From assembly GCF_043381705.1 (NCBI RefSeq), contig NC_092214.1, forward strand, positions 2,705,022 through 2,722,529: a DNA stretch of 17,508 nucleotides, given 5' to 3'. The translations under genes and the position numbers were made by a program. Position 1 is the first letter of the stretch. Every line of letters starts with the position of its first letter. The notes under the pieces were generated by a model. It searched no databases and had not been told where the DNA came from. It was given only the letters and a program-made list of their open reading frames with translations. Positions 2,541 through 17,284 of the stretch are shown in pieces. Source of the DNA: Parasteatoda tepidariorum. Its lineage: Eukaryota.

Positions 2541-2794
2541 CATTCTTCCGTTCCCAAATAAATCAACTGAAATATGTGAGCATAATATTGAGAAGTATGA
2601 AATCTGTGTGACTAGCTACATCATCCATTCTTATGATCTTAGACTTTCAGCGTTATTTCTAATTTTTGGCAGGTGATTAGGTCACCTGGATTTAAATTAT
2701 TAATTCCCAGTTATCTTTCCTAGCAAGCTTGATCACCAGATTTGTTGCGGAAATACTCACCACCCAATCATAGCTAAGCACCTATCCTCATTTT

Positions 2795-3062
2795 TTAACA
2801 GCTGTGGCAGGAATGTTGTATCATTTTGAACCTGATCAGACTACACGGACGGTGCCTGAGTTGGTGCCTTTTTTTCTCTAAGCTTTTACCCTCTAACTGA
2901 TGAGAGGATTTTCGCCCTTGACAGATTTAATGTGCAACTTTGCTGCGTACGCACACCGGTTGTTTAGTCCGCTGCCAGGATTAAACTCCTGAACCCCAGG
3001 TCTCTACCAGCGGTGTGAGCAGAGCCTTAACCATCTCTGCCACTGGAGCGTCTTGTTGTCAG
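2795..3062 (-). mobile_element. tRNA-derived SINE, B2-like head with pol III A- and B-box-like motifs, antisense in intron 2; the 3' boundary is uncertain
   Basis: The reverse complement of 2971-3052 is CGCTCCAGTGGCAGAGATGGTTAAGGCTCTGCTCACACCGCTGGTAGAGACCTGGGGTTCAGGAGTTTAATCCTGGCAGC. It has an A-box-like TGGCAGAGATGG, a B-box-like GGTTCAGGAGTTTAATCC, and the overall shape of a tRNA-derived SINE head. It forms a GC-rich block in AT-rich DNA. The tail side has only short A runs, so the element may extend to about 2650. Confidence 0.5.
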
Positions 3063-3215
3063 AACAGCACAACTGCTTCAAGAGTACACACTGTTGAGCT
3101 TATTTGACTTCTTAGCTAAATGAATTTACTATTTTATAATTCTAAAACAACAGGTTTATATGTCTAAAATTAGAAGTTGATTTTTTTATTTGCTTTTAAT
3201 ATTTTTTTTCTTTAG

Positions 3216-3332
3216 ATTTATCCTCGATATTATTTATCTGGCTCACATGATAATAATATTATTATGACTGAAGGTTATGGGGAGAAAATCTTATGTGGAT
3301 TAAAGACAAGCGTAATAAATGTTTGTTTCTCA
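3216..3332 (+). CDS. WD40-repeat protein, coding exon (phase 0 to 0)
   Basis: The acceptor is ttttttttctttAG at 3214-3215. Only one frame is open: IYPRYYLSGSHDNNIIMTEGYGEKILCGLKTSVINVCFS. The donor is CA|GTAAGT at 3333. LSGSHDNNIIM is WD-like, and VINVCFS is the typical 'V.SV.FS' strand. An alternative weaker donor, GTAATA at 3312, would also keep phase 0. Confidence 0.55.
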
Positions 3333-3722
3333 GTAAGTATCTATTTTTTACTATTTTTTTAGAAGAAAGTAATGAAGTATTTTTAATATTCTAACTTGAT
3401 GTATATCAAGAACAGTGTTGTAATAATCTATATTTTAGTTACTGTTAAATATTTTGTAACCCTCCAAACCCATGAGCCATTGAGTAAAATTACGCAGAAA
3501 TTTTCTTGCTACTTGCAATTTTTTCTTTTGCTAACATGAAGAAACTGGTATTTTAATGCAATTTGAAAAAGTACAACACTAAGAGTCAGAGGGTTAATTT
3601 CAATTTTAGTTCATAATAAATTATAAATAAAAAATTTGTTTCTAAATTATAAAATTCATTTTATCTTTTTAAACTTAATTTTCATAGAAACTGTTTTCAA
3701 CTCCTATTGTTTTATTTTTCAG

Positions 3723-3849
3723 AATGATTATATCATTGGATGTGCTAATGATGGTAGTGTTGCCATGTGGTCTATAGATGGGAAATTATCAAGTTATGTC
3801 CCTGGAATTGATCAATCATCTACAATATTATCATTCTTAGTTGAAAAAA
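3723..3849 (+). CDS. WD40-repeat protein, coding exon (phase 0 to 1)
   Basis: The acceptor is ttgttttatttttcAG at 3721-3722. The translation is NDYIIGCANDGSVAMWSIDGKLSSYVPGIDQSSTILSFLVEK(+a), in the same frame as the supplied + ORF 3636-3866. The donor is A|GTAAGA at 3850. GCANDGSVAMWSIDGK is a classic WD40 core. Confidence 0.65.
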
Positions 3850-4249
3850 GTAAGACAATAATTTGAATTCATGTAGTCATTACAAATATTATTGAGTTAT
3901 AGATAGCATCTATTTAATGAAAAAGATATTTTAAAGCATTCAATCGATGTGAGCTGTAACAGTTTCATTCAAAAACTCAATATTGTCTATTAAATTATTT
4001 TTCCAACTTTCTGCTTTCTTTTTGATTATAAAATAATGGTGAACAAGAATTTAGAATCACTTTTTTCTAAAGTATATGTGGAAAACAAATTTGTTTCTGA
4101 AACTCATCTTGAAGCTAAAATAATTTATACTTTATTATCATATAACTAATCACGTTTTTTGTATATTTTTAAGATTTTGTAATGTAAGTATATTTTTTAC
4201 TTCTTTATTTTTTAAAATATTAATTTTTATTGTATGTTTTTTTGCATAG

Positions 4250-4329
4250 ATGTGGCAGGAGGAGTCTTTGATGTCACTCTGGCATATGTTGATAAAGATG
4301 GCAGTGTGAAAATAACTAAACCTATTCAG
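4250..4329 (+). CDS. WD40-repeat protein, coding exon (phase 1 to 0)
   Basis: The acceptor is tttttttgcatAG at 4248-4249. The one-nt carry-over 'a' plus AT gives N, then VAGGVFDVTLAYVDKDGSVKITKPIQ. The donor CAG|GTTTTA at 4330 is weak. The frame closes with a stop 15 nt further on, so the exon must end by then. Confidence 0.5.
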
Positions 4330-4445
4330 GTTTTAAACTTTTCTTAATAATAACTTGTTACATTAATAGTTTTTAATCACAAATTTTTATTGTTTCTTTT
4401 GGTTAAGCTAAAGAAGCATTTTGAGTTTTCTTTAGAACTTTCTTT

Positions 4446-4503
4446 AGAGGAAAAAATTTTACCAATAAAGATGTACACTACTTTATTGGTAAAATTTTCC
4501 TCT
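4446..4503. repeat. Long near-perfect hairpin (about 23-bp stem, 10-nt loop) in intron 5
   Basis: The left arm AGAGGAAAAAATTTTACCAATAAAG (4446-4470) pairs with the right arm CTTTATTGGTAAAATTTTCCTCT (4481-4503). The pairing is perfect apart from a 2-nt A bulge. The loop is ATGTACACTA. Confidence 0.6.
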
Positions 4504-5974
4504 CCATTTTTAAGTAAAATTAGGCAAAATAATCCATTTTTTGTTTTTTCAAAGATGTTAAAAAGTTAATTTAAATCAGAAATAGTTGGATTTGCTTCTG
4601 ATATTTCACCTCACAAAGAAATTCTTTCGCATTTCTTAGATAAAATTTTATCATCAATAAAACATCTACTGTAAATGAAATATTATTTAGATATATTCCT
4701 TACCGTTGAAAGAAGTTTCAATTTTATTGTTACAAGATTTTCCCCATTGCTACTTTGCAACAAACTTGTATTTGAAGGAGTTTCCTTATTTTTATAGCAT
4801 GTAGCAGATGAGTTTTTTTAATCCAAACCATACGTAGGACTAGGTGATGTAAGAAATTTTGTATTGTGATATATCGTCTGTTAGATATTGCAATATAGTG
4901 ATATATTGCAATGGAACATAGTGTCAGATATTATTTCTTTTGAATCAAAACCACACAATTAGTAATCTTAAATCAATCTTCAAATAAAAAATAGAAATTT
5001 AAATAAAAGAAAATTGTATTTATATGAAAAAAACACTGCAAGCAAAAATAACACTGCTTAGCTTTTAAAAATTAAGAGAATGAAGATGACTTAACACCAA
5101 ACTCTAATATTAAAAATAAACGTAAGCTGAAAATAGTATAAATTTTAAAAATTAAATAACTATCATTCTTAATTTAAATAATTTAAATAGGAAATATACA
5201 CCATGAAATAAATATAAGTAGATTAAGCAGAGAAAAAGTAGACTCTGCCTAGTAAGATTATTTACTCTATTCAATTTAAGCTATAATTAAGAAAGTATTC
5301 CTGAGTTTTTCAATTATAATTTCGATATAAATTTTAAAATTTAGCTTCAAGAAGCTCATTTTTTTAAAACTTCTAAATCTTTTTGTTTTGTGCAACTTAA
5401 AAAAGCAATATTTTAATAAATTTCCCGAATCTTCAGAATCTTGAAAGTTTTTGGCGTGAACTATTAATTGTTGTGCTTTGTATAAAAATCTAAAAATAAC
5501 AAAATAAATGTTTTAAAATGGATTTGTACTACACTATCCCTGACTTTGCTTCAATCCTGATCAGCAGTTGCTGCTGTAAAAATTTATTCACCTTATTTTT
5601 TATCGCACTTCTAACAGCTCTTATTTTACACCTCTAATTTTCTTATTGCACCTATTAGGAATAAAAAATATTGAATTAAAATAATTTTTTAACGATAACA
5701 ATGTTTCTTTTCAACAAGTAGAAACTAACATCGATTTTGAAGTGAAAATTTCATCTTTGAACAACCTTTAACTTTAAAATTACTTCAAGCTTAATGAAAA
5801 GTTTTTTTTCTCCTCATATATCTTAGCCTTAAAATTGATTGGTGTGCAAAACTTCAAATTAATTGGTAGTCTCTTTTTTAATTTACTAAAATCAATCAAA
5901 TTATTTTTAAAAACCTAATTTTATTTGTATGTTAGTGTATATTTTGAAATATTTAAAGTGTTTTTTTTTTCTAG

Positions 5975-6262
5975 AAATTATATTGGTATTCACTTGAAGG
6001 ACACAGCAAAAGTATCACATCATGCAGTATCAATAGAAATGGTGAAATAATCTCAAGCTCTCTTGATGGAACAATAAATGTTTGGAAAATTAGTGCCGAT
6101 ACCCCAGATGCATTTTTAAACCATAAATCATCCATTAATGGAATTCTTATATCAAATGAAAACAAAATGCTGATTACTTCTGATGTGCAAGGAACCATTT
6201 TATTGTGGAAACCGAATGATGTTTCAAAACGATTCAGTTTAGTCTGTGTTGGAAAGAAAACT
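5975..6262 (+). CDS. WD40-repeat protein, coding exon with two full WD repeats (phase 0 to 0)
   Basis: The acceptor is ttttttttttctAG at 5973-5974. The 96-codon open frame reads KLYWYSLEGHSKSITSCSINRNGEIISSSLDGTINVWKISADTPDAFLNHKSSINGILISNENKMLITSDVQGTILLWKPNDVSKRFSLVCVGKKT. A GTAAGT donor lies at 6263. The supplied minus ORF 5971-6198 is its antisense shadow. Confidence 0.8.
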
Positions 6263-9200
6263 GTAAGTCATATTATTTCTTGTTATTGTAGTTTAAATTT
6301 TCTAGCTATTAATTAAATCTGAATAAAGCTTAGAATAAAAAATTTTTTCTTTAGATAAATTATGTTTTAAAATTATGTTAAGAACCTTATTTGTTTAAAG
6401 TGTTATTTTTTTCATATCTTCCTGAAACCAGACATTGGACAACATTTGATAATATTTTAGTGTGCAAAAAAAATTTTTTAAAGATTTTTTTGTGCTTTTA
6501 CAAAATGATTGTCTATGTAAAAACATAATTGATGTAGGTAACCTTTTCAGGGTCAAAATACACTGCAAAAATATGCCACAATCTTTAAAAAAGAAAAACT
6601 TAAATATATAACTTTTTTATGAAATTTAAAATTAATTACATTCAATTGTAATTTTTAAATTTTTTTAATCTTATTTATAAGATAACATTGTTCTAACCTC
6701 CATATTTCTTGGTAAAATAGCATTTTTTGTCATTATACAAAACGTGGATCTCAGGAGGATATGTAATTTGAATTTCATTGAAGGTAAAATTATTGATTCT
6801 TAATTTATCTTTAATATTAACATTACCAATCCCAAGTAGCACAAATCTCAAAAACGCTATCATAAAAACACAACTTCAAGCGATATCGTTGAGAAATATT
6901 GTGATATATAAAAATGGACACAATTTCTAATATTGTTCAATATTCTAAAATTATATTGTTTGATACTTAAAAGAAACGCTGTAGAATGTTATTAGGTATC
7001 TCTGAGCATTAACAAGCGCTGTAAATCGACATTGTAAAAACTACATTCACAAAACAAATGCTGTGGAATTCTGGCCATCATCACCTTCATTTTTCAAAAA
7101 ATGTAACATTTGAAAAAAAAATTCAGGATTGTTTGTAATCTGGAAAAGAGAAAAAACTGTTTATAAAACCATTTCCAGCTAGTTTTCAATAGAAATAGAA
7201 TATCTTTCATTCAATATATATTTACGTGTGGAAGCAACTATTTTGTTAAAAAAGTTGGTAAAGCTTTTCCTATTTTAAACTATACAGCATTATTTACTTT
7301 CTACTGGGTGAAAAACTATCATGCATAGATGTTAGAACTTTTAACAATTCTTGGTAGTCAAGGATATTTTTTTCTCATTCCTGAAAATAAAGCAGCAATG
7401 AAACGGCTTTTGCTAAAAAAAAAATTTCTCTTTTTCCAGTGTACAAAAAGCCCTGTTATAATTTCAGTTTGAAATTTCTTTTAATAATTGTTGTAATAAC
7501 TATAAAAATAATTAAAATGAAACAAAATTACAACGATAAGGATTTTTCTACTTATCTTTTTTTTTCTCTCACTGAAATTCAATCTTCGCATAACTTTTTT
7601 TTTATAATACCTAAACTTTCTCCTGATTAAAATCTTTAATTAAACCTAGAGAGAAAAGTACTGTGTGGGTACGTGTATACTGAGTGGGAAGAAATACACC
7701 AAAAATATTTTGTGATATGCTCGTATTCCATTTGTTTCAACAAAAATAGGTATTAACTCAGTACTTAAAAGTTTCCCTTATAAAAAAATATTTGTAGAAA
7801 ATTTCTTTAAATAGTGACCACAATTCTCTATTAAAACCTATTTTTTCATTTTCAAATAAATAGTTTTTTATATGTCTAGTTGTGAAATTCAGCATAAATA
7901 GACAAATGTTTAAAAATGTAATGCAAAGACACTAGGACTTTAAAAAGATGCCAAAAATTGTGTTTGGTAATGGTTAATAAAGAAAATGATACTCGTATGT
8001 CACATAATTTTATTTTGCATAAAATAATGTTTTCAACTGATTTTATTGAATATAATTTGCTGATAATAGATAATGCATGAAAAATATATTATACATTTTC
8101 TTAAGCAAATGGGTAAAATACATTAATGGGGGAAGAATTTAAAAAATTATGTGTTACAGTCAGTTGCATTGACATTAGTTAGAAATAGAGAAATAGTTCT
8201 TGAGAAAAAAACGACTTATTTGTTTTTCAACTAATAATATCAATAATCAATAGAACACAGGCAATATAGTTTATTAAAGCATGAAATTTCATAGTAAAAT
8301 CATGAAATTTAGGAAAATAAACATTGCGACAGCAATGCTTCCTTAAGATATTTACCAATGATAAGCACTTTAACAACAAAGACAACTTATGGTAGTTATT
8401 AAGACAGTGTGAAGAAAAATATATATGCATTATCTCCATCTTATGTATACTGTCATAGGTACCAACCCTGAAGTAACAACTTCCCACAATATTTAAAGCT
8501 GTATGACAATTATTGTATTTATTGTTATTTTTGTAGGCAAAATCAATTTGAATCAAACTTATTAAATAAAAAAAATGACTAAGCATAAAATTTAATACTA
8601 CTCAAATTATGATCCAAAAAAATTATTGATAAACCTGGGATATTAGCTGGTATGTACTGTATATGCATTTATGAAACATGCTTACTTATACTTTCAAATA
8701 AAATTATGAAGAGATAAAACTTCTCTACATTGGTTTGATCTTTTATACCCTAATAGATATGTTTTTAAGCTATATTTTAAATATTAAGTTGATCAAAGAA
8801 ATTTTTCCCTTAATTTTTATGACTTTATGATAAAAATAGAAACAATTCTCAAGTTTTTAAAAAAACAATTCAAACATTAAATTATTACTATATGCTGGCT
8901 TTATTAACCCTCTAAAGCATTAGTTATTGATTCACCTCACTGTTTATACATATATATACATATTTGCTTCAATATTTTTCTTTCTATGTTATTTTGTACT
9001 AAATACTCAGCAAGATTAAAGTATTAGATATTTAACTCAGTTAACTACTTAAATAATTTCTCAATAATTTCTCATGAATTTTGCATAATATTTTAAATAA
9101 AAGTATATGTTTAATCAGAGACATTTCAATCTAAATGTTTTTAAATTCTAAAAGCAATTCTATATTTACTACTTTGAACTTATTGGTGGTGTTCCAAATA

Positions 9201-13349: not shown

Positions 13350-13357
13350 GTATATAG
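13350..13357. repeat. Left copy of the 8-bp target-site duplication GTATATAG
   Basis: It is identical to 14744-14751 and sits immediately outside the CAGGG terminus. Confidence 0.65.
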
Positions 13358-14743
13358 CAGGGTTCGTTGATTTAAATCAGCTTGATTTAAATCACGATTT
13401 AAATCATAATTTAAATAAATTGCTGCATTAATTAATTTTAGTTAACGAAAATTACTTTCTTTCTTAGTGTGTGTTAAATTCCAACACATTTGAAATTACA
13501 TTTTTAAAAATCTTTTGATTCTTGAGATTGAAAGTACAGATTAAAGTAAACATTTAATGCTGTCTTAATATAGACTTGCATAGCTGTAGAAAGTAATTAA
13601 TAAACATGCATTTTTTTCAAAAATAATGCAAATAATGTTAATTAAAATTCTTCTTTGAATGAAAAAGTGTGAATTAAAATCTACATCATATTTTATTGGT
13701 GAAAAATGTATATTTCTGGAGCTTGAGGTTATAATAAAAAGAAATTACCCTAATATGCCAAAAACAGAAAAAGAAAAAAAAAAAAGACTGATGAATTCAT
13801 ATGTTTTTTTCCTAGTATAGTTTCATTCTTCCCTTTCAAATTCTATTTGATGCAGTAGGGTTATTAACTGGTATTTTTTCTCATAATATGTTTACAGTAT
13901 CTTTGACATTATCTGATTTTCTATTACGAAATTTTGTGGAAAAAAAATTCCAATGAGTACATAGATTTTCAAATTTTTTTTTTAGCTTAACTTATCTATT
14001 TTGATATAGAATTAAAAATGAATATTTTAATATAAAAATATATAGATTAAATATTTATTTATTTTTTGATGAATGACTACATTTATAAACACAGTCTGCT
14101 ACATTTATTTTGTCATTTTAAAAATCAAGAGAAAAAAAAAGAAATCACAATTTTAAATTAAAGTTATGGTTTGCTAACTGAAACTTTGTTTTAATAGTTA
14201 AAGCACAGGGGTCTGTCCAAGCCGGTACCTTTACAAATTCAACTTTAGGAAAAATGATAGAATAATCACACAAAATACTTTTTCTTAAAATTTTATTTTT
14301 GTGTCTCGTAAGAAGCGAAAAATCCATATTTTTACTATATTTCTGTTGATTTTTTATTATAATTTTTAATTTTCACGAAATAGGTACCTCTCAGAATAGG
14401 TACCTCTCAGACCCCTGAAGTATTCTTTAAATTCTCTATTTCATCTAGTCTTTAAATTTTAATCATGCATTTGTTTCAAAATGGTTGCTATGCATTCAAA
14501 GCCATGTATTGTAATGAAAAATTATTTTAGTTAGAGCTTCTAAATTATTGTTACAATATAGTTTTACTATTAAGCTAATTTGATTAAACATTTATAATTT
14601 TTTTAATCATAAATTAAAGTTCTTACAGTGTATTTGAATAAAAATCAAAAAAATCTGATTTAAATCAAAAAAATCCGATTTAAATCAAAAAAATCTGATT
14701 CTTTTGATTTTTTTTAAAAAAATCAAAAAAATCACGAACCCTG
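13358..14743. mobile_element. Non-autonomous hAT-like DNA transposon (1386 bp) with terminal inverted repeats, palindromic subterminal repeats and no intact ORF
   Basis: The left terminus is CAGGGTTCGTTGATTTAAATCAG. The reverse complement of the right terminus is CAGGGTTCGTGATTTTTTTGATT, matching 15 of 16 positions with one indel. There are subterminal repeats of the perfect palindrome TGATTTAAATCA: three imperfect copies on the left, and on the right (C/T)GATTTAAATCA plus AAAAAAATC spacers. Perfect 8-bp direct repeats GTATATAG flank both ends. The only internal ORF is the 60-aa 14145-14327 minus ORF. Confidence 0.7.
14204..14416. mobile_element. Possible small inverted-repeat (MITE-like) insertion nested inside the hAT-like element
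   Basis: The left arm is CACAGGGGTCTGTCCAAGCCGGTACCT. The right arm is AGGTACCTCTCAGACCCCTG, preceded by a direct duplicate ATAGGTACCTCTCAGA. The 10-bp core CAGGGGTCTG / CAGACCCCTG is a perfect inverted repeat about 190 bp apart. Confidence 0.3.
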
Positions 14744-14751
14744 GTATATAG
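14744..14751. repeat. Right copy of the 8-bp target-site duplication GTATATAG
   Basis: It is identical to 13350-13357 and sits immediately outside the ...CCCTG terminus. Confidence 0.65.
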
Positions 14752-16016: not shown

Positions 16017-16130
16017 TTTTCGGCGAAAGCGCCGCTTCGTCGCAAGCGCCGCACATCGATAAAATGGAAATTTTTAAAAAAAATTTTATAGTAAGCACCG
16101 CAATGGCGCTAAACCGGGCATATCAGCATC
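16017..16130. other. CpG- and GC-rich island with short direct repeats in an AT-rich context (possible promoter or CpG island, or relic of a GC-rich element)
   Basis: The sequence is TTTTTCGGCGAAAGCGCCGCTTCGTCGCAAGCGCCGCACATCGATAAAATGG...AGCACCGCAATGGCGCTAAACCGGGCAT. AAGCGCCGC occurs twice and GCACCGC recurs again at 16318. ATCGATA resembles the core of the insect DRE motif (TATCGATA). Confidence 0.3.
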
Positions 16131-16575: not shown

Positions 16576-17284
16576 CCCAAAAAAATTCTGAAGGAATGAG
16601 AGAAGAGGAAATAAGTTTCACTTTCACAATCTTAGGGGGTGGAATTTTAGTGGGTAGAATGCCCTCTCCTTCAATGGAAATAACCCAATGTGACTCAACT
16701 AGAAAGAGAAGAAAATGTTTAAAAGAGGGGTGTACCCCACCTCCTCCACGTGTCATTTCTACTGGAGCTGATTAGGAGAAATCAATCAGTTATATTTTAA
16801 AGGGGTTGGGGAAAAGAAAAGGGTATGGGACCCCTAATCCAGCATTCCAAAATTCAGCACTTAATCTGATCTAATTTTTTCTTCTTTTTTTTTTAAGAAA
16901 TTTATATTGATAAGATAAAAAAAAAATCAGCTATAATCTTTTTATTTGGAATTTTATTCTGTTGAAGTAACTTACTTTATTTTATCTTTTAAAAATAAAA
17001 AAAGAAGCTTGAAAAAAATAATAAAAAATAATAAATCTGTGTCAAAGGAAACATCTGTTTCTTAAGCAGTTTAAAATAAATTGAGAAGTAAAAACATCTG
17101 CATTCCCAATGAACAAAATAAAGAAATGCAAGTTGGAAAAAACTGATCAATCAATCTTGACAGCTGGGCTTGTGCTTTACTAATTTGCCCCCATATTTCC
17201 CTCCTCTGTTTGACCATAAATTGGCCACACCCAGTTGATGACATTGAAACTACCATGTGGACAACAAAGTGAATTCTATCCCTT

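Follow-up and report, generated by a model that had tools for sequence, protein, structure and literature searches.

Elements of the hAT superfamily are characterised by a duplication of 8 bp at the target site (the target-site duplication, or TSD) and short terminal inverted repeats (TIRs) of 10-25 bp (PMC3942097). The ends of maize Ac/Ds read C/TAGGGATGAAA ... TTTCATCCCTA, and their subterminal regions contain the hexamer AAACGG, to which the transposase binds (PMC3260210). The different classes of Ds have the termini alone in common, and these enclose a filler of ~1 kb (PMC3260210). In Hermes, a hAT element of insects, BED domains bind asymmetric subterminal repeats with the sequence AAG(T/C), and the preferred target sequence is nTnnnnAn (PMC10368747). 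Two of the Hermes repeats form a quasi-palindrome in the segment LE11-27, which is bound cooperatively by two BED domains (PMC10368747). Additionally, the insect hAT-derived elements Mar (of Drosophila) and BuT2 (MITEs) are short and non-coding, keep ~90-130 bp of each hAT end and are present in modest copy numbers (PMC3517528, PMC3942097).

The locus described here contains an element of 1386 bp at positions 13358-14743 of the window, which is the whole 17.5-kb stretch of DNA that was analysed. The window is AT-rich eukaryotic DNA with an overall G+C content of ~25%. Judged from its sequence, the element is very probably a DNA transposon of class II (cut-and-paste) without autonomy of its own, with the hAT superfamily as its most likely affiliation. 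The element and its immediate flanks are composed of the following features, given in window coordinates and with the strand where one applies.

13350-13357: left copy of the TSD, GTATATAG, 8 bp; differing 8-bp duplications occupy this place in other copies of the family
13358-13367, plus strand: 5' TIR, CAGGGTTCGT, a perfect 10 bp, with similarity extending to 13373 when a 1-base indel is allowed
13368-13418: 5' array, composed of TGATTTAAATCA at 13368-79, TGATTTAAATCA at 13383-94, CGATTTAAATCA at 13395-406 and a degenerate TAATTTAAATAA at 13407-18
13419-14641: non-coding interior ('filler'), with no Pfam domain in six frames and ORFs of at most 75 aa
14642-14700: 3' array, composed of three copies of the 20-bp tandem unit AAATCAAAAAAATCYGATTT and holding TGATTTAAATCA at 14656-67 and CGATTTAAATCA at 14676-87
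14696-14734: 3' local palindrome, TGATTCTTTTGATTTTTTT / AAAAAAATCAAAAAAATCA, with 19-nt arms that are 95% complementary and contain further TGATT/AATCA half-sites
14734-14743, minus strand: 3' TIR, which reads ACGAACCCTG on the plus strand and is the reverse complement of CAGGGTTCGT
14744-14751: right copy of the TSD, GTATATAG, 8 bp, as supported by the octamer count in the window

Apart from the two TIRs, no exact copy of CAGGGTTCGT is present on either strand of the window, and 0.16 copies are expected even when one mismatch is allowed. Past the perfect 10 bp, the 5' arm continues as CAGGGTTCGT-T-GATTT and the reverse complement of the 3' arm as CAGGGTTCGT-GATTT, which differ by a 1-base indel. 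The initial annotation had reported a TIR match at 15 of 16 positions, and this value is borne out as 10 perfect base pairs followed by the single indel; the positions that it gave for the element and the TSD all proved correct when re-checked against the window sequence. An empty insertion site would be expected to read ...TTTTGAGTGT GTATATAG CTATGTAAGAG..., and an autonomous element of the family would be expected to have the ends CAGGGTTCGT...ACGAACCCT(G/A).

The 19-nt 5' tip of the element was scanned against public metagenome contigs, and 13 loci were matched. Five of the 13 (L002, L003, L005, L007 and L008) are chance 19-mer matches and were rejected as relatives. The true relatives are eight contigs from three JGI samples (Ga0115856, Ga0181466 and Ga0068630), which represent five independent sites: L001 (the same as L010), L004, L006 (the same as L012), L009 (the same as L013) and L011. 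All of the related contigs consist of AT-rich, non-bacterial host DNA. In all five sites, similarity to the window starts exactly at the C of CAGGG, the left flanks are mutually unrelated and the first 12 nt of the element are identical. Equal boundaries in unrelated flanking DNA, which distinguish a transposable element, are found at these five further sites. Three of the sites hold complete copies in addition to that of the window, as follows.

L004, 3172-4057: 886 bp, flanked by ATGAATAC / ATGAATAC, a perfect 8-bp TSD
L006, 331-1604 (the same site as L012, 4545-5817, on the opposite strand): 1274 bp, flanked by GTTTAATA / GTATTCGT, which do not match
L011, reverse strand: 1259 bp, flanked by ATACTAGT / ATACTAGT, a perfect 8-bp TSD

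Perfect 8-bp duplications, each different in sequence, are present in three of the four complete copies, with the window copy included. All copies begin at CAGGG, and L004 and L011 duplicate other octamers; GTATATAG is therefore target DNA and not element, and the possibility that this flank forms part of the element was rejected because the flanks differ between copies. The initial annotation had interpreted GTATATAG as an 8-bp TSD and had proposed a search for other copies sharing the termini as a check, and the five further independent sites in metagenome host DNA uphold it on both points. In L006, both termini are intact despite the unequal flanks, and the right flank agrees at 7 of 8 positions with the L004 TSD when the latter is read in reverse complement. 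The unequal flanks may stem from two copies that recombined with each other or from a rearranged flank.

The 3' termini are more variable in sequence and read ...ACGAGCCCTG in L004, ...ACGAACCCTA in L006 and ...ACGAATCCTA in L011. Expressed as the reverse complement, the 3' tip is CAGGG in the window copy and in L004, TAGGG in L006 and TAGGA in L011. L006, L011 and L013 can be aligned from end to end with 91-94% identity, and L004 and L001 have the same ends with a different interior. As obtained by BLAST, the window copy shares with its relatives only nt 1-59 (91-93% identity) and the last ~108 nt (~1276-1386; 90-96%), and its interior bears no relation to theirs. The extra T after the 5' 10-bp TIR and the difference in repeat layout between the left and right ends are present in every related copy. 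This asymmetry therefore characterises the whole family and does not reflect decay of the window copy, and decay was rejected as the origin of the TIR indel, which is conserved across the family.

Further copies were sought with both tips, which yielded 0 matches in viral contigs and, among prokaryote genome contigs, one chance 21-mer match in an otherwise dissimilar gammaproteobacterial MAG. A literature search with the TIR sequence returned primers at most. Taken together, the element is a member of a multi-copy family that is alike in ~60 bp at the 5' end and in ~110 bp at the 3' end, occupies unrelated sites and duplicates 8 bp of target DNA, and the interiors of the family are heterogeneous and non-coding. 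The shared exact boundaries, the unrelated flanks and the site-specific 8-bp duplications therefore identify a cut-and-paste DNA transposon family.

The subterminal regions are dominated by short repeats. The exact 12-bp palindrome TGATTTAAATCA occurs three times and CGATTTAAATCA twice, at the positions listed above. Their 10-mer core, GATTTAAATC, is found five times in the window, always in the subterminal ~50-90 bp of the element, and the expected number is 0.10; five occurrences are reached in 0 of 200 shuffles. At the 5' end, the motifs succeed each other at intervals of 15 and 12 bp; at the 3' end, they follow the 20-bp unit. In the relatives, the 5' array is kept as GATT(T/A)(T/A)AATC variants. 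The 3' 20-bp array is 90-96% conserved in L004 and L006 and partly deleted in L011, and the 3' local palindrome is likewise present in L004 and L006 and deleted in L011.

Counted over the four complete copies, each terminal 120 bp holds 3-12 TGATT/AATCA half-sites, with 5 and 8 for the two ends of the window copy, whereas the interiors and flanks contain ~0.2-0.9 per 120 bp. Over these terminal 120 bp the enrichment is roughly 5- to 60-fold and varies with the end and the copy. Clusters of short subterminal repeats that are laid out differently at each end, as in hAT elements, are present, and the layouts are conserved across copies. By analogy with known hAT ends, the repeats of the 5' array are candidate binding sites for a transposase of the BED type.

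In the interior, the longest open frames (53-75 aa) of the element gave no significant match in a Pfam scan, and a Pfam scan of all six frames of the element with the stops masked detected no family up to E = 1. Each frame contains about 40 stops in ~460 codons, with 43 in one frame. A hAT transposase would be expected to have a BED zinc finger, an RNase-H-like DDE domain with an insertion domain and a hAT C-terminal dimerisation domain (PF05699); no such transposase and no autonomous copy was seen in 45 kb of related contigs. ORFs of the related contigs that appear Tc1- or MULE-like by eye have no Pfam match and are not claimed as such.

The probable assignment to the hAT superfamily is a purely structural one, drawn from the 8-bp TSD, the C/TAGGG tips and the subterminal repeats. 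A TSD of 8 bp that varies by copy, as expected of hAT elements, is observed in the window, L004 and L011, with the flanks of L006 (the same as L012) being unequal. The TIRs of hAT elements measure ~10-25 bp and have (C/T)A(A/G)NG tips; the present TIR measures 10 bp, and the family has CAGGG as its 5' tip and either CAGGG or TAGGG as its 3' tip. Regarding the palindromic target preference nTnnnnAn of the Ac group and Hermes, T is found at TSD position 2 in all six sites and A at position 7 in two of the six, in a small sample with an AT-rich background. A Buster-type target with a central TA was reportedly described by Arensburger et al. in 2011, and one of the three complete TSDs fits it. The initial annotation had described the CAGGG-type ends as hAT-like, had noted palindromic subterminal repeats at both ends and had concluded from the missing transposase ORF that the element is non-autonomous. 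The first statement is supported by the agreement of the TSD, tips and subterminal repeats with the hAT hallmarks; the repeats are indeed concentrated at the termini and conserved in all copies; and the non-autonomous status agrees with the lack of any Pfam match in six frames. In size and composition, copies of 886-1386 bp with heterogeneous interiors fall outside a strict definition of MITEs (under ~0.6-0.8 kb, high copy number and homogeneous), and the term 'Ds-like non-autonomous element' fits better than MITE.

The individual components of the structure are common enough to raise the question of a chance coincidence of inverted and direct repeats in AT-rich DNA, with no mobile element involved. 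The octamer GTATATAG occurs exactly twice in the 17.5-kb window, both times flanking the element, and two occurrences are not rare by themselves (0.47 expected; at least two in 16 of 200 shuffles); G+C-containing 10-bp inverted repeats within 5 kb likewise arise ~1.7 times per simulated window. However, the full configuration, in which an inverted repeat of this kind is abutted by an identical 8-bp direct repeat, was obtained in 0 of 400 Markov-1 simulated windows; without the G+C filter, the same configuration occurs 0.083 times per simulated window, mostly in A/T runs. Additionally, the same termini recur, exactly delimited, at five more sites with 8-bp duplications of their own, by which a chance origin is already refuted, and it retains virtually no credibility. 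The element could also be a decayed autonomous hAT element or an internal-deletion derivative that carries remnants of a transposase gene, given that internal deletion is a common origin of non-autonomous hAT elements (PMC3942097, PMC3260210). The density of stops in each frame, the lack of a Pfam match up to E = 1 and an interior that is unrelated to those of other members, as is typical of captured filler rather than of a shared ancestral coding region, make such an origin very improbable.

A further explanation places the element, as a non-autonomous member, in a different superfamily of DNA transposons with 8-bp TSDs (P, or Zisupton-, Novosib- or Merlin-like), the transposase of which would mobilise it. 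A TSD of this length is not exclusive to hAT: P elements also generate 8-bp TSDs, and those of Zisupton, Novosib and Merlin measure 8-9 bp. Moreover, no transposase was found in the frames of the element or in the related contigs, and A is not enriched at TSD position 7. P elements have CATGATG ends, a TIR of ~31 bp and THAP-binding sites, and the ends of Merlin begin with GG. The element agrees with P in the 8-bp TSD but has CAGGG tips and a 10-bp TIR in place of the CATGATG tips and long TIR. The C/TAGGG tips instead coincide with the five nucleotides at which the Ac/Ds ends begin (PMC3260210), which is the terminal pattern of hAT, and dense, asymmetric and short subterminal repeats are typical of hAT ends (PMC10368747, PMC3260210). 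With the short TIR and the T at TSD position 2 in every site added, membership in another superfamily appears unlikely.

For the preferred reading, that of a non-autonomous hAT element, the following course of transposition may be proposed. A hAT transposase supplied from elsewhere in the genome would recognise the C/TAGGGTTCGT tips, and its N-terminal BED-type zinc finger would also bind the TGATT/AATCA half-sites that are packed in both subterminal regions, with a different layout in each. The TGATTTAAATCA palindrome, which has nt 11 of the left end as its first base, may bind two BED domains, like the STR1-STR2 quasi-palindrome at nt 11-27 of Hermes. The transposase would then synapse the ends and cut out the element, and reintegration would take place across an 8-bp staggered cut, the repair of which would generate the GTATATAG duplication. 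The binding of the repeats by BED domains is what we infer from the analogy with Hermes.

Divergence among the related copies amounts to 6-9%, and some of their tips are mutated, which points to an amplification in the metagenome host that is of moderate age and not ongoing. The initial annotation had proposed a relatively recent insertion from an active or recently active family on the basis of the intact TSD and the well-matched TIRs; the window copy does have a perfect TSD and perfect 10-bp TIRs, and the divergence among its relatives gives no sign of very recent amplification. On the plus strand of L013, part of a mariner transposase (Mos1-like, HTH_48) is located at 4233-4745, where it is frameshifted and cut by the contig end. 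This fragment is 82-89% identical to mariners of an ant, spiders, a cockroach and a shrimp. The sequence suggests that the metagenome host is an arthropod, with the reservation that mariners transfer horizontally. Besides the element termini, the 45 kb of host DNA from the metagenomes has no repeat in common with the window. If the hosts differ, horizontal transfer of the hAT family would be implied, and such transfer is common for hAT elements (PMC3942097). It is conceivable, if doubtful, that the window and the metagenome contigs do come from different hosts, that the 90-96% identical ends reflect horizontal hAT transfer between animals and that the 12-bp palindrome at nt 11-22 marks a lineage in which a dimeric interaction between BED domains and the palindrome, as at Hermes LE11-27, is the main determinant of end recognition.

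The surroundings of the element contain several other features. An exon encoding WD40 sequence is located at 5975-6313 on the plus strand (Pfam WD40, E = 2.5e-13), and the element lies 7 kb downstream of it. Weaker WD40-like stretches are discernible by eye on the same strand at 1376-1558, 1632-1793, 3216-3359 and 3700-3863, with no significant Pfam match. A word-indexed search of a 5.8-billion-protein database returned no close homologue of the exon, and when 1.84 billion cluster representatives were searched exhaustively with HMMER, only generic multi-WD40 proteins of at most 40% identity were matched. When 270 proteins were compared with the window by tblastn, the exon at 5975-6313 alone was recognised, and 10 ORFs of the window have no exact match in the protein collection. 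No Rfam families or tRNAs are found in the window or in the related loci.

A two-copy tandem duplication with a unit of ~285 bp, 78-91% identity and spacings of 283-308 bp is present at ~1957-2545. It is followed on the minus strand at ~2670-3095 by an island of ~40% G+C in surroundings of 25% G+C, which by eye resembles the head of a tRNA-derived SINE, with …GCTCCAGTGGCAGAGATGGTTAAGG…GGGGTTCAGGAGTTTAATCC… as box A- and box B-like sequences; neither ARAGORN nor Rfam (E up to 1) reports anything in this island. Perfect or near-perfect tandems of high G+C content are present at 16019-16052 (TTCGGCGAAAGCGCCGC twice, partly palindromic) and at 16628-16660 (AATCTTAGGGGGTAG twice). Within the interior of the element, a second, smaller inverted-repeat unit at 14206-14417 consists of the arms CAGGGGTCTG ... 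CAGACCCCTG, which lie 212 bp apart and have hAT-like tips (CAGGG...). The right arm is adjoined by AATAGGTACCTCTCAG twice, as a perfect 16-bp tandem, and GGTACC is located 20 bp inside the left arm. The flanks of this unit, TTAAAGCA and AAGTATTC, are unequal, and no second copy of it was found in the window or in the related loci. The unit may represent an old MITE that is nested in the element, or it may have arisen by chance.

The element is an ordinary hAT-like non-autonomous transposon of a well-known kind, and nothing about it challenges the current understanding of such elements. The practical use of the result lies in annotation, where it is advisable to mask the region as DNA-transposon sequence and not to treat it as search space for genes or regulatory sequences. 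Additionally, the CAGGGTTCGT termini together with the TGATTTAAATCA repeats provide a precise probe for counting the family and for finding an autonomous hAT partner and insertion polymorphisms.

A comparison with the insect elements Mar and BuT2 reveals common features in the short, non-coding sequence and in the 8-bp TSDs that vary between copies (PMC3517528, PMC3942097). The present family has no sequence similarity to either of them, and Mar and BuT2 are deletion derivatives of 0.5-0.9 kb from a known autonomous element, whereas the members of the present family measure 0.9-1.4 kb, have heterogeneous interiors and are without a known parent. The likeness to maize Ac/Ds extends further, to the 8-bp TSD and the short, imperfect TIRs starting with C/TAGGG. 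The 3' end of Ac, ...CCCTA, is found in L006 (the L011 tip is TAGGA), and in both systems many short repeats, which bind the transposase in Ac, occupy the terminal ~100-200 bp (PMC3260210). The window copy is related to the other copies in the same way as Ds2 and Ds-l4 are to Ac, with common termini and unrelated filler of ~1 kb (PMC3260210). However, the TIR beyond CAGGG is different, with CAGGGTTCGT here and CAGGGATGAAA in Ac, and the subterminal motif is TGATT/AATCA in the form of a 12-bp palindrome rather than AAACGG. The host is AT-rich and animal-like here and a plant in the case of Ac/Ds, and an autonomous partner is known for Ds alone.

Hermes and the present family have in common the 8-bp TSD and short subterminal repeats in sets that are unequal between the ends; T at TSD position 2, as preferred by Hermes, is observed here in all six sites of a small, AT-rich sample. 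The differences are that the TIR of Hermes is 17 bp long (CAGAG...) and its repeat is AAG(T/C), that the binding of repeats is inferred for the present family and that the present element is without a transposase gene. A palindromic pair of repeats directly follows the tip in both systems: in Hermes it is the quasi-palindrome of LE11-27, whereas here it is an exact palindrome at nt 11-22. By this analogy, a palindromic site at the position of Hermes STR1-STR2 may serve as a small comparative data point on how hAT ends are read.
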